From contig WAPT01000010.1 in the NCBI GenBank assembly GCA_015520605.1, positions 1 through 28,974 on the forward strand: a stretch of DNA of 28,974 bases. Reading direction: 5' to 3'. A model generated the notes under the pieces. The model worked only from the letters and a program-made list of their open reading frames with translations. It searched no databases and was not told where the DNA came from. The position numbers and the translations under genes are program-made. The stretch is from Nanobdellati archaeon (lineage in GTDB: Archaea; EX4484-52; WAPT01). This document shows, one piece after another, positions 2,053 to 3,837 of the stretch; position 1 is the stretch's first letter; every line of letters starts with the position of its first letter.

Positions 2053-3837
2053 ATGGAGGAGCACAAAATAAGGATAGCGGTTGTGGACACCTCTAAATGT
2101 AATCCTAAGAAGTGTCAGAAAGAATGTCTTAGGTTCTGCCCCAGGGCAAGAGCGGGAGATGAGACGGTGGTTGTGGACGATAAAAGAGCATATATTGATG
2201 AAAAAACATGTGTCGGATGCGGGATCTGTGTGAAAAAATGTCCGAGAAAAGCGATAAAGATAGTTAATCTAATATCTGAACCAAAAAACAAGGTACACCA
2301 GTACGGAAAAAATGGATTCCGACTTTATAGACTCCCAATCCCTAAAGAAAGTGCTGTGGTTGGAGTTCTCGGATTAAACGGGACAGGCAAAACAACGGCA
2401 ATAAGGATACTCGCGGGCATCCTCAAACCGAATCTGGGGAAGCTGGATGAAGATGTTGGATGGGAGGAGATTCTCGAGAGATTCAGAGGAAGTGAACTGC
2501 AAACCTACTTAAAAAGACTTGCTGAGGGAGAAATAAGGGCGGTTCTCAAACCGCAGGAGGTGAACAAGCTACCAGTATATTATGGAGAAAAACATGTGAA
2601 CAGTTTGATAAATGCAGACGCTCCTGATTTCGAGTTAGTGGACTCCTACCTTAACATCTCGAAGCTTCTGGAAAGAAAGCTGAGCGAGCTGAGCGGAGGT
2701 GAGTTGCAGAGGGTTGCAATAGCTGCGTGTATGCTGAGAGATGCGGACTTCTACCTCTTTGACGAGCCATCGAGTTTCCTTGATGTGGAACAAAGACTAA
2801 AAGCTGCACAGGCCATAAGGCATCTGGCTTCTGCTGGCAAGAGCGTTGTGGTCATTGAACATGACCTTGCAACGCTCGATTTCCTTTCCGATTACATCCA
2901 TATATTTTATGGGGAGCCTGCTGTTTATGGTGTTGTCTCCGCTTCCTACACCGTCAAGAGAGGCATAAATCTCTACCTCGACGGCTACATTAAAGAGGAA
3001 AACATAAGGTTCAGAGATGAGCCCCTCTCGTTTGAATCTCAGGCGAGAATAGAAGAGGAAGGAGATGTTGTGGTTAAGTACACCCGACTGATGAAGAAGT
3101 TTCCGTCTTTCACGCTTGAAGTGGATGAGGGAGAGCTTGAAAGTAGGAACATAATAGCTGTTCTCGGAGCAAACGCACTTGGTAAGACGACCTTTGCAAA
3201 GATGTTGGCGGGTATAATCAAGCCAGATGAAGGAGGGATAAGCACAAATATAACGATATCGTACAAGCCACAGTACGTACAGCTCGGAAAGAACGAGGAA
3301 AGCATGACTGTTATGGAAGCTCTCACGAAAGCGTCGGGAGGGAAAAATATTATGAGCGCTGCCATAAAGGAAAAGATTCTGAAGCCTCTTGAGATAGATG
3401 AGCTTCTGGAAAGAAAGCTGAGCGAGCTGAGCGGAGGTGAGTTGCAGAGGGTTGCAATAGCTGCGTGTATGCTGAGAGATGCGGACTTCTACCTCTTTGA
3501 CGAGCCATCGAGTTTCCTTGATGTGGAACAGCGCGTCAGGTTTGCAAAACTACTGAAAAGGTTTGTGATGGACACGCAAAAGGGTTGCCTTGTCATAGAT
3601 CATGACCTCCTCTTGCTGACATACTTGGCAAAGAAGTGCATACTTTTTGAGGGTAAACCATCGGTTAACGGTAAAGCATCAAAACCACTGTCCTTTGAGG
3701 AAGGGATAAACCTGTTCCTTAAGGGTGTGGGTATAACCTTCAGGAAGGATGACGAAACGTTCAGGCCGAGAGCGAACAAGCCCGGTTCGCAGAAGGACAG
3801 GGAGCAGAAGGAAAAAGGAATTTATTATTTAGGATGA
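2053..3837 (+). CDS. rli: Ribosome recycling ATPase ABCE1/RLI
   Basis: Fe-S domain ([27 protein letters not shown]); two NBDs ([23 protein letters not shown] twice); C-terminal [17 protein letters not shown]. Alternative GTG start at 2041. Confidence 0.97.
   Translation: [594 protein letters not shown]
2663..2792 (+). repeat. 130-bp exact direct repeat, copy 1 (ABCE1 NBD1 signature to D-loop)
   Basis: Base-for-base identical to 3401..3530, an offset of 738 bp. Confidence 0.97.
3401..3530 (+). repeat. 130-bp exact direct repeat, copy 2 (ABCE1 NBD2 signature to D-loop)
   Basis: Base-for-base identical to 2663..2792. Confidence 0.97.

Follow-up and report, generated by a model that had tools for sequence, protein, structure and literature searches.

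An exact repeat inside a single ABCE1 gene

All archaea and eukaryotes have ABCE1 (also called RLI), an essential ribosome-recycling ATPase, and they share the internal duplication that gives it two nucleotide-binding domains (NBD1 and NBD2). We analysed the ABCE1 gene on contig WAPT01000010.1 of a Nanobdellati archaeon. This stretch of 28,974 nucleotides (nt), to whose full length all positions refer, is called the window here, and is the entire contig C9 of its own genome (G000; 863,228 bases, 27 contigs). A single open reading frame (ORF) on the forward strand runs from an ATG at 2053 to a stop codon at 3835–3837 and encodes a protein of 594 amino acids (aa). Pfam domains Fer4_RLI (E = 9e-9), Fer4 (6.5e-7) and ABC_tran, the last in two stretches, were found on this protein, and its residues 4–593 matched residues 17–606 of ABCE1 from P. 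abyssi (3bk7_A) with E = 2.3e-188. Fourteen solved ABCE1 sequences, 3bk7 and 13 further ones, matched at E ≤ 1e-50. Judged by these matches, the ORF at 2053–3837 is a complete ABCE1/RLI gene. As the sole ABCE1 of G000, where the remaining ATP-binding cassette (ABC) matches reach only about E 1e-13, it is presumed to be functional.

Both copies of a perfect repeat lie inside this ORF. A repeat search and direct string comparison showed that positions 2663–2792 are identical to positions 3401–3530, 130 nt with 0 mismatches and with 0/42 third codon positions differing. This confirms the original prediction, made from the letters of the window, of a zero-mismatch repeat that includes synonymous sites. 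The copies start 738 nt (246 codons) apart and are in the same frame. One base beyond either end of the repeat, identity is at the random level, and outside the tract NBD1 and NBD2 of the window gene are identical at 31.7% of protein positions (59/186) and 43.5% of DNA positions (243/558). In the 863-kb genome the repeated sequence is present twice only, both times in ABCE1.

Motifs are named as is usual for ABC proteins and as in parts of PMC6124641. Walker A, Q-loop, signature, Walker B with its catalytic glutamate, D-loop and H-loop were located in each of the two NBDs, all on the forward strand. The iron–sulphur (Fe-S) domain occupies 2098–2244, where Pfam places Fer4_RLI and Fer4, and has eight cluster cysteines at aa 16, 21, 25, 29, 53, 56, 59 and 63. 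The NBD1 Walker A (GLNGTGKTT, 2371–2397) lies outside the tract and is unlike the NBD2 Walker A. Copy 1 of the tract (2663–2792) contains the signature (2689–2703), Walker B and the catalytic glutamate (2749–2766) and the D-loop (2767–2784) of NBD1. It is followed by 608 nt of unique spacer (2793–3400), comprising the rest of NBD1, with its H-loop region IEHD (2854–2865) outside the tract, the hinge and the start of NBD2, including the NBD2 Walker A (3166–3192). Copy 2 (3401–3530) holds the corresponding signature (3427–3441), Walker B and glutamate (3487–3504) and D-loop (3505–3522) of NBD2, and the NBD2 H-loop region IDHD (3595–3606) again falls outside. The motif strings are the same in both copies: LSGGE, FYLFDE and PSSFLD. 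In protein terms the tract reads K or E followed by 43 residues. The predicted coverage of LSGGE, Walker B and D-loop between diverged flanks, which are about 43% identical in DNA, was thus borne out.

The same segment was compared in 27 full-length ABCE1 genes from seven other families of the order, two of which have an indel and gave no value. Over the same 132 nt, NBD1 and NBD2 are 54–65% identical in the other 25 genes and the longest identical run is 7–36 nt, compared with 100% identity here; chance is therefore excluded as the source of the 130-nt repeat. This is the comparison of NBD1 with NBD2 nucleotides in relatives that the original prediction had proposed. We took P. abyssi (3bk7, 3j15) and S. 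solfataricus (3ozx, 5lw7, 6tmf) as references for canonical archaeal ABCE1. The window protein shares their full architecture, an Fe-S domain with eight cysteines, two NBDs and hinges. Where P. abyssi reads ...FYFFDEPSSYLDIRQ in NBD1 and ...IYLLDEPSAYLDVEQ in NBD2, however, the two segments of the window gene are identical even in DNA.

Support for the repeat in independently built contigs

The locus was examined in Logan contigs (k = 31) of public sequencing runs, which were built independently of the assembler and polishing of the genome. Of these runs, X1 covered the sampled words best (94%), and the window was probably assembled from this sample. A separate unitig of 130 nt was observed directly in X1 at exactly 2663–2792, with a depth of 79.5 and no variant letters listed inside the tract. 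Among its unique neighbours, the left contig ends at 2692 (depth 23.8), the middle one covers 2763–3430 (35.2) and the right one starts at 3501 (37.8), so that each stops or begins 30 nt (k − 1) inside the repeat. Contig ends at k − 1, together with a depth at least twice that of the neighbours, are the expected product of an exact repeat, and X1 therefore supports an exact repeat of 130 nt.

The contig ends of G000 bear on how the copies were assembled. In seven pairs of ends (for example C3/C4, C22/C3 and C1/C24) the overlap is exactly 151 nt, with 100% identity. If the unit of assembly was about 151 nt, as this suggests, it was longer than the 130-nt repeat, and each copy was probably assembled with some of the unique sequence beside it. 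The same assembler also resolved exact repeats of 125 nt and 113 nt in the surface-protein-like gene on contig C22 described below. One further pair of contig ends overlaps by 150 nt and two pairs by 146 nt, and the assembly could probably be joined further.

The repeat in related lineages

Two genomes of close relatives were available for comparison. G001, from the same genus, has an ABCE1 with 77% protein identity to that of the window, on a large contig. G002 is the closest species, with 95% protein identity over the part of ABCE1 present. The tract of G001 is identical between NBD1 and NBD2 at 124/125 positions, and the lone mismatch is synonymous (GGG/GGA). Both G001 copies differ from the window tract at 27–28/130 sites. 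The sequences thus differ within a genome at 0/130 (G000) and 1/125 (G001) positions and between the genomes at 27–28/130, a pattern read directly from the alignment. At third codon positions G000 and G001 differ at 20/42 in the tract and at 309/504 elsewhere in the gene.

The NBD2 tract of G002 differs from that of the window at 14/130 sites. Its NBD1 half was sought in the G002 genome and was not found; contig C32 ends at the equivalent of window position 3266, about 135 nt upstream of copy 2, and the first two thirds of ABCE1 are missing. The missing part was probably lost during assembly or binning, in connection with the repeat. In run X5, from another study, a unitig of 125 nt (3407–3531) has 13 differences from the window, the same count as G002 has over the same bases; X5 carries the G002 lineage. 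The neighbouring contigs of this unitig end or start at 2698, 2764..3436 and 3502, and therefore indicate an exact repeat of 125 nt. In run X3, which comes from a third study and has mixed strains, breaks also lie near these positions. The borders of the tract are not the same in the different lineages: in window coordinates they lie at 2663–2792 in G000, at about 2672–2796 in G001 and at 2669–2793 in the X5 strain. Borders that vary with the lineage are to be expected if the conversions took place independently.

A search of 5.8 billion proteins gave three further members of the clade among the matches listed: P0002, which is that of G001; P0004, a 348-aa form from the G002 lineage; and P0003, with 66% identity to the window protein. 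P0003 has 34 consecutive identical residues across its two NBDs, and its D-loops are still site-specific (SFLDVKQ and AYLDVEQ). From this shorter tract with site-specific D-loops, the extension over the D-loop seems to belong to the ancestor of the genus. G000, G001 and P0003 are the three lineages in which both copies are known, and wherever an amino acid varies among them, it does so in parallel in the two copies. For the 120 proteins listed, except P0004, which has one signature motif only, we determined the longest in-register stretch of identity between NBD1 and NBD2 (119 proteins). It is 44, 41 and 34 residues in the clade, 18–22 in Archaeoglobales-like proteins (n = 7) and at most 16 in the others.

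Self-BLAST was applied to 69 fetched ABCE1 loci and to 80 from diverse archaea. A near-identical internal repeat was found elsewhere only in G001, and was absent from all 148 other loci screened in this way. In the other 68 fetched loci the best matches within the gene are 74–78% identical over 113–150 nt, and in the 80 diverse loci the best internal match of at least 60 nt is 81% identical. A scan of metagenome contigs yielded 40 ABCE1 loci, the best with 57% identity, and a scan of genome contigs with P0003 kept 80 loci, the best with 51%. The genome of P0003 was not among the 42 genomes covered by the order-level and phylum-level searches.

Trees of the tract and of its flanks have different topologies. 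In the tree of the 132-nt tract (57 rows), the five segments of the genus form one clade (SH-like approximate likelihood ratio test (SH-aLRT) support 95), within which NBD1 and NBD2 of G000 are sisters (92), as are NBD1 and NBD2 of G001 (88). When the tract was removed (59 rows), the 29 NBD1 rows separated from the 30 NBD2 rows (100), the NBD1 flanks of G000 and G001 formed a pair and the genus's three NBD2 flanks a clade (100 each). The tract therefore groups by genome and the flanks by domain, and the two have different histories. The within-gene clustering that the original prediction had named as support for concerted evolution is what the tract tree contains. The inference of recurrent intragenic conversion made there is supported by these conflicting trees and by identity within genomes against divergence between them, in three lineages. 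In the same tract tree, four loci from one genus (L015, L018, L019 and L023) have NBD2 tracts that are placed with the NBD1 segments; this could be noise, or the trace of a partial conversion long ago.

Two candidate signatures were tried and rejected. Divergence between G000 and G002 is not significantly faster in the tract than outside it (14/126 against 28/441 bases; Fisher p = 0.12, with a tract denominator of 130). GC-biased conversion gave no consistent signal across G000, G001 and 25 outgroups: GC content in G000 is 0.516 in the tract and 0.448 in the rest of the gene, GC at third codon positions in G001 is 0.524 in the tract, below the 0.552 of the rest of the gene, and the GC excess of the tract in the 25 outgroups is only 0.01–0.02.

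A mosaic of NBD1- and NBD2-type residues

The residues of the tract were compared with those of 116 other ABCE1 proteins (P0005–P0120). Three are of NBD2 type: L in FY-L (frequency 0.09 in NBD1 and 0.94 in NBD2 elsewhere), E in V-E-Q (0.03 and 0.97) and C in AA-C (0.26 and 0.79). Two are of NBD1 type: F before DEPS (0.73 in NBD1 and 0.10 in NBD2 elsewhere) and S in DEPS-S (0.97 and 0.02). The mixture is directly visible in both copies, and the idea of the original prediction that the segment is a chimera of the two domains proved correct. Such a mosaic implies conversion in both directions, which overwrote near-invariant site-specific residues. In a further protein, P0005 (56% identity), NBD1 has the NBD2-type DEPSAYLD and a run of 12 residues, YLFDEPSAYLDV, is common to both NBDs, perhaps the mark of a conversion in a different lineage that was shorter or took place earlier.

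Origin and maintenance of the repeat

In a small group of hydrothermal-vent archaea, a stretch of 125–130 nt of ABCE1 evolves in concert, and the rest of the two halves has diverged. We consider it highly probable that the repeat is real and is maintained by recurrent intragenic gene conversion. The process would be non-reciprocal homologous recombination between the NBD1 and NBD2 coding regions, in the same gene or in sister copies of the genome, by which the segment with signature, Walker B and D-loop would be pasted repeatedly from one half onto the other. It would probably have started in the sole region where the ancient halves retain enough DNA identity for seeding. Appreciable DNA identity between the halves of ABCE1 is confined to this segment, where it reaches about 78% over 113–150 nt. 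Locus L009 (genome G014, of another family) has a perfect NBD1/NBD2 match of 36 nt at the signature (1868–1903 and 2594–2629), a possible conversion seed. Identity of about 78% over 113–150 nt with a perfect run of 36 nt should be enough to seed homologous recombination. After a first homogenisation, complete identity would ease further conversion and the process could sustain itself. The flanks, which lack homology and have domain-specific functions under selection, would keep the tract from spreading. Early events in both directions may have left the mosaic, with at least one later event in each lineage after their split. A cross-over joining the two direct repeats would remove 246 codons and preserve the reading frame; in a single-copy essential gene, such products would be expected to be purged. 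Machinery for homologous recombination is present: G000 encodes RadA (311 bits), a RadA paralogue and Hjc (77.5 bits), and the window itself has Hef-like and Hel308-like genes.

A perfect repeat could also appear if similar, non-identical segments had been merged when the assembly graph was simplified or when reads that map to both were used in polishing, the latter a possibility that the original prediction had flagged. The genome is metagenome-assembled and lies in 27 contigs, collapsed forms of the gene exist elsewhere (P0004, where 348 aa equals 594 − 246, and an X2 contig that skips 738 nt), and Logan contigs can lose variants. Against this, the k = 31 graph of X1 contains the 130-nt unitig at twofold depth or more with no variants listed, and the G001 assembly retained one mismatch between otherwise identical copies, so that near-identical copies can be resolved; these two results make such an artefact unlikely. 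Most telling are the homogenised sequences of three lineages, each different from the others. The residue mosaic, moreover, stands in both copies and could not be created by polishing, and the repeat is shorter than the unit of assembly to which the 151-nt overlaps point. Altogether an assembly or polishing artefact is very unlikely. A single ancient conversion or partial re-duplication, after which purifying selection at the DNA or RNA level kept the copies identical and conversion no longer went on, would account for a tract that encodes the most conserved ABC motifs and whose protein changes more slowly between species (4/42 codons, against 128/504 in the rest of the gene). The tract DNA is not frozen, however: G000 and G001 differ at 26/126 bases and at nearly half of third positions, yet copies within a genome differ at 0 (G000) and 1 (G001) positions, and tract ends that shift by a few bases between lineages fit separate events. 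We regard the single ancient event as extremely improbable.

Selection could also act on the outcome of conversion rather than replace it. If two catalytically identical ATP sites were beneficial, convertants would be selected, a proposal that is compatible with conversion as the mechanism. In its favour, 97% site-specific residues have been overwritten and the tract nevertheless persists through the divergence of at least three species, and the shorter tract of P0003 places the joining of the D-loop later, after which it was kept. Self-sustaining conversion, however, explains persistence without any benefit, and in the small genomes of the genus (0.86–1.2 Mb) drift may fix mildly deleterious convertants. 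We consider adaptive homogenisation unlikely. Recurrent conversion as such is the preferred explanation.

Several points weigh against that explanation. The read evidence consists of Logan contigs only, from which rare variants can be dropped and in which a bubble between near-identical copies can be popped; a single fixed difference between the copies in X1 or X5 could therefore have been lost. Since X1 probably shares reads with the window, its independence extends to the assembler and the polisher but no further. Assemblers mishandle the locus, as P0004 and the X2 contig joining 2662 to 3401 demonstrate. G002 lacks the NBD1 half, and the evidence for its lineage is the graph topology of X5 and the collapsed 348-aa protein; P0003 is known from protein sequence alone. 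Finally, recombination as the mechanism, the way it was seeded and its effect on function are inferred from sequence rather than seen directly.

Gene conversion between duplicated core genes has precedents. Recurrent conversion of tufA and tufB is described in parts of PMC5485169, and the survey of Wang and Chen (2018), according to parts of PMC6053082, lists 26 prokaryotic genes, of which 7 are archaeal and all from methanogens. The present case resembles these in that paralogous copies of one genome are more alike, also at synonymous sites, than orthologues from different genomes, and in being recurrent and affecting core machinery. The known cases are separate gene copies, as a rule converted along the greater part of each gene, whereas in ABCE1 two domains of one essential single-copy gene share an island of 125–130 nt. 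The term 'ABC' occurs 0 times in the main text of PMC6053082 when searched by term. Spider silk genes, cited in the same source, and the giant protein of contig C22 likewise have perfect internal DNA repeats in one ORF; those repeats are young, modular and often variable, while the duplication in ABCE1 is ancient, with flanks of 32% protein identity and the catalytic core alone homogenised. In the literature on ABCE1, or on NBD1/NBD2, with gene conversion, no relevant report appeared as judged by titles and the starts of abstracts. Among the papers returned are, by the same standard, ones on Candida Cdr1, yeast oligopeptide transport and poxvirus gene arrays, and none treats conversion between ABCE1 domains; in the ABC-transporter paper PMC13257379 a term search placed 'gene conversion' in a reference title alone. 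The process, concerted evolution by gene conversion, is known and the place is new: the catalytic motifs of two presumably non-equivalent sites, in two domains of one essential single-copy gene.

Possible consequences for the two ATP sites

Functional asymmetry of the two ATP sites of ABCE1 is textbook knowledge (PMC6124641, in part). In S. solfataricus ABCE1, the signature serine, the catalytic glutamate beside Walker B and the D-loop define asymmetric sites I and II, site I combining the glutamate of NBD1 with the signature serine of NBD2 and site II the other way round, as given in the same parts of that paper. The tract is identical in both halves of the window gene, and therefore both composite ATP sites share the residues of signature, Walker B, catalytic glutamate and D-loop. 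We infer that any residual asymmetry would have to lie in the unconverted parts: Walker A, Q-loop, H-loop, the NBD1 insertion, the hinges and the Fe-S domain. The gene amounts to a natural motif-swap experiment, which predicts that asymmetry is encoded elsewhere or else is dispensable in the clade. It has stayed the only ABCE1 while at least three species diverged, despite the overwritten 97% site-specific residues. If conversion has acted as proposed, an internal duplication as old as that of ABCE1 can be recaptured at its most conserved island. The phenomenon is lineage-specific and mechanistically unsurprising. It also carries a warning for genomics, since assemblers break or collapse an essential gene at this locus (P0004, G002).

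Collapsed forms, other repeats and neighbouring genes

P0004 comes from a 26-kb contig of the G002 lineage. It matches the window protein at 196/204 residues before the tract, 41/43 in the tract and 96/101 after copy 2, and from the tract onward it is identical to G002 (142/142). Its layout is that of a complete chimeric single NBD: the Fe-S domain, the NBD1 Walker A and Q-loop, the shared tract, and the NBD2 H-loop and C-terminus. What is missing is the 608-nt spacer plus one repeat copy (738 nt). A low-depth X2 Logan contig makes the same join, from 2662 to 3401. The 348-aa form is most likely an assembly collapse across the repeat and, less probably, a real deletion allele. The G002 contig holds spacer sequence upstream of copy 2, and a full-length form therefore exists in this lineage. 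Spacer depth is low relative to the flanks (3.5–4.6 against 9 in X2, 8.5 against 15–18 in X5); as evidence for a deletion allele it was rejected, because one mean per contig in mixed strains is not interpretable.

The seven Archaeoglobales-like ABCE1s (P0042, P0078, P0081, P0082, P0085, P0109 and P0120) have 18–22 identical NBD1/NBD2 residues around the signature. Three of them are from Geoglobus, and in 6/7 the switch among LLRDAD, LLREAD and LLKEAD occurs in both copies together. From these sequences they may represent a second lineage with concerted evolution. It is decidedly unlikely that the repeat keeps generating real deletion alleles of 246 codons, which survive in wild and perhaps polyploid populations, and that conversion also recurs in the Archaeoglobales-like ABCE1s. 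If both held, the ancient internal duplication of ABCE1 would still be recombinationally active.

The only other exact within-contig repeats of more than 100 nt in G000 are a pair in C22, inside a giant cysteine-rich ORF of about 2,508 aa (19894–27420, reverse strand) that resembles a surface protein. There, 21371–21495 equals 21959–22083 (125 nt) and 25882–25994 equals 26086–26198 (113 nt), and whole domain segments are duplicated.

Scans of the whole window for tRNA genes and with Rfam gave 0 matches each. Downstream of ABCE1 the window contains an ORF of 593 aa without a Pfam match (5839–7617, reverse strand), a gene for a Hef-like helicase with an ERCC4 nuclease (7689–10442, reverse strand), a Kae1/TsaD gene (13027–13998, forward strand) and a Hel308-like helicase gene (14045–16264, forward strand).

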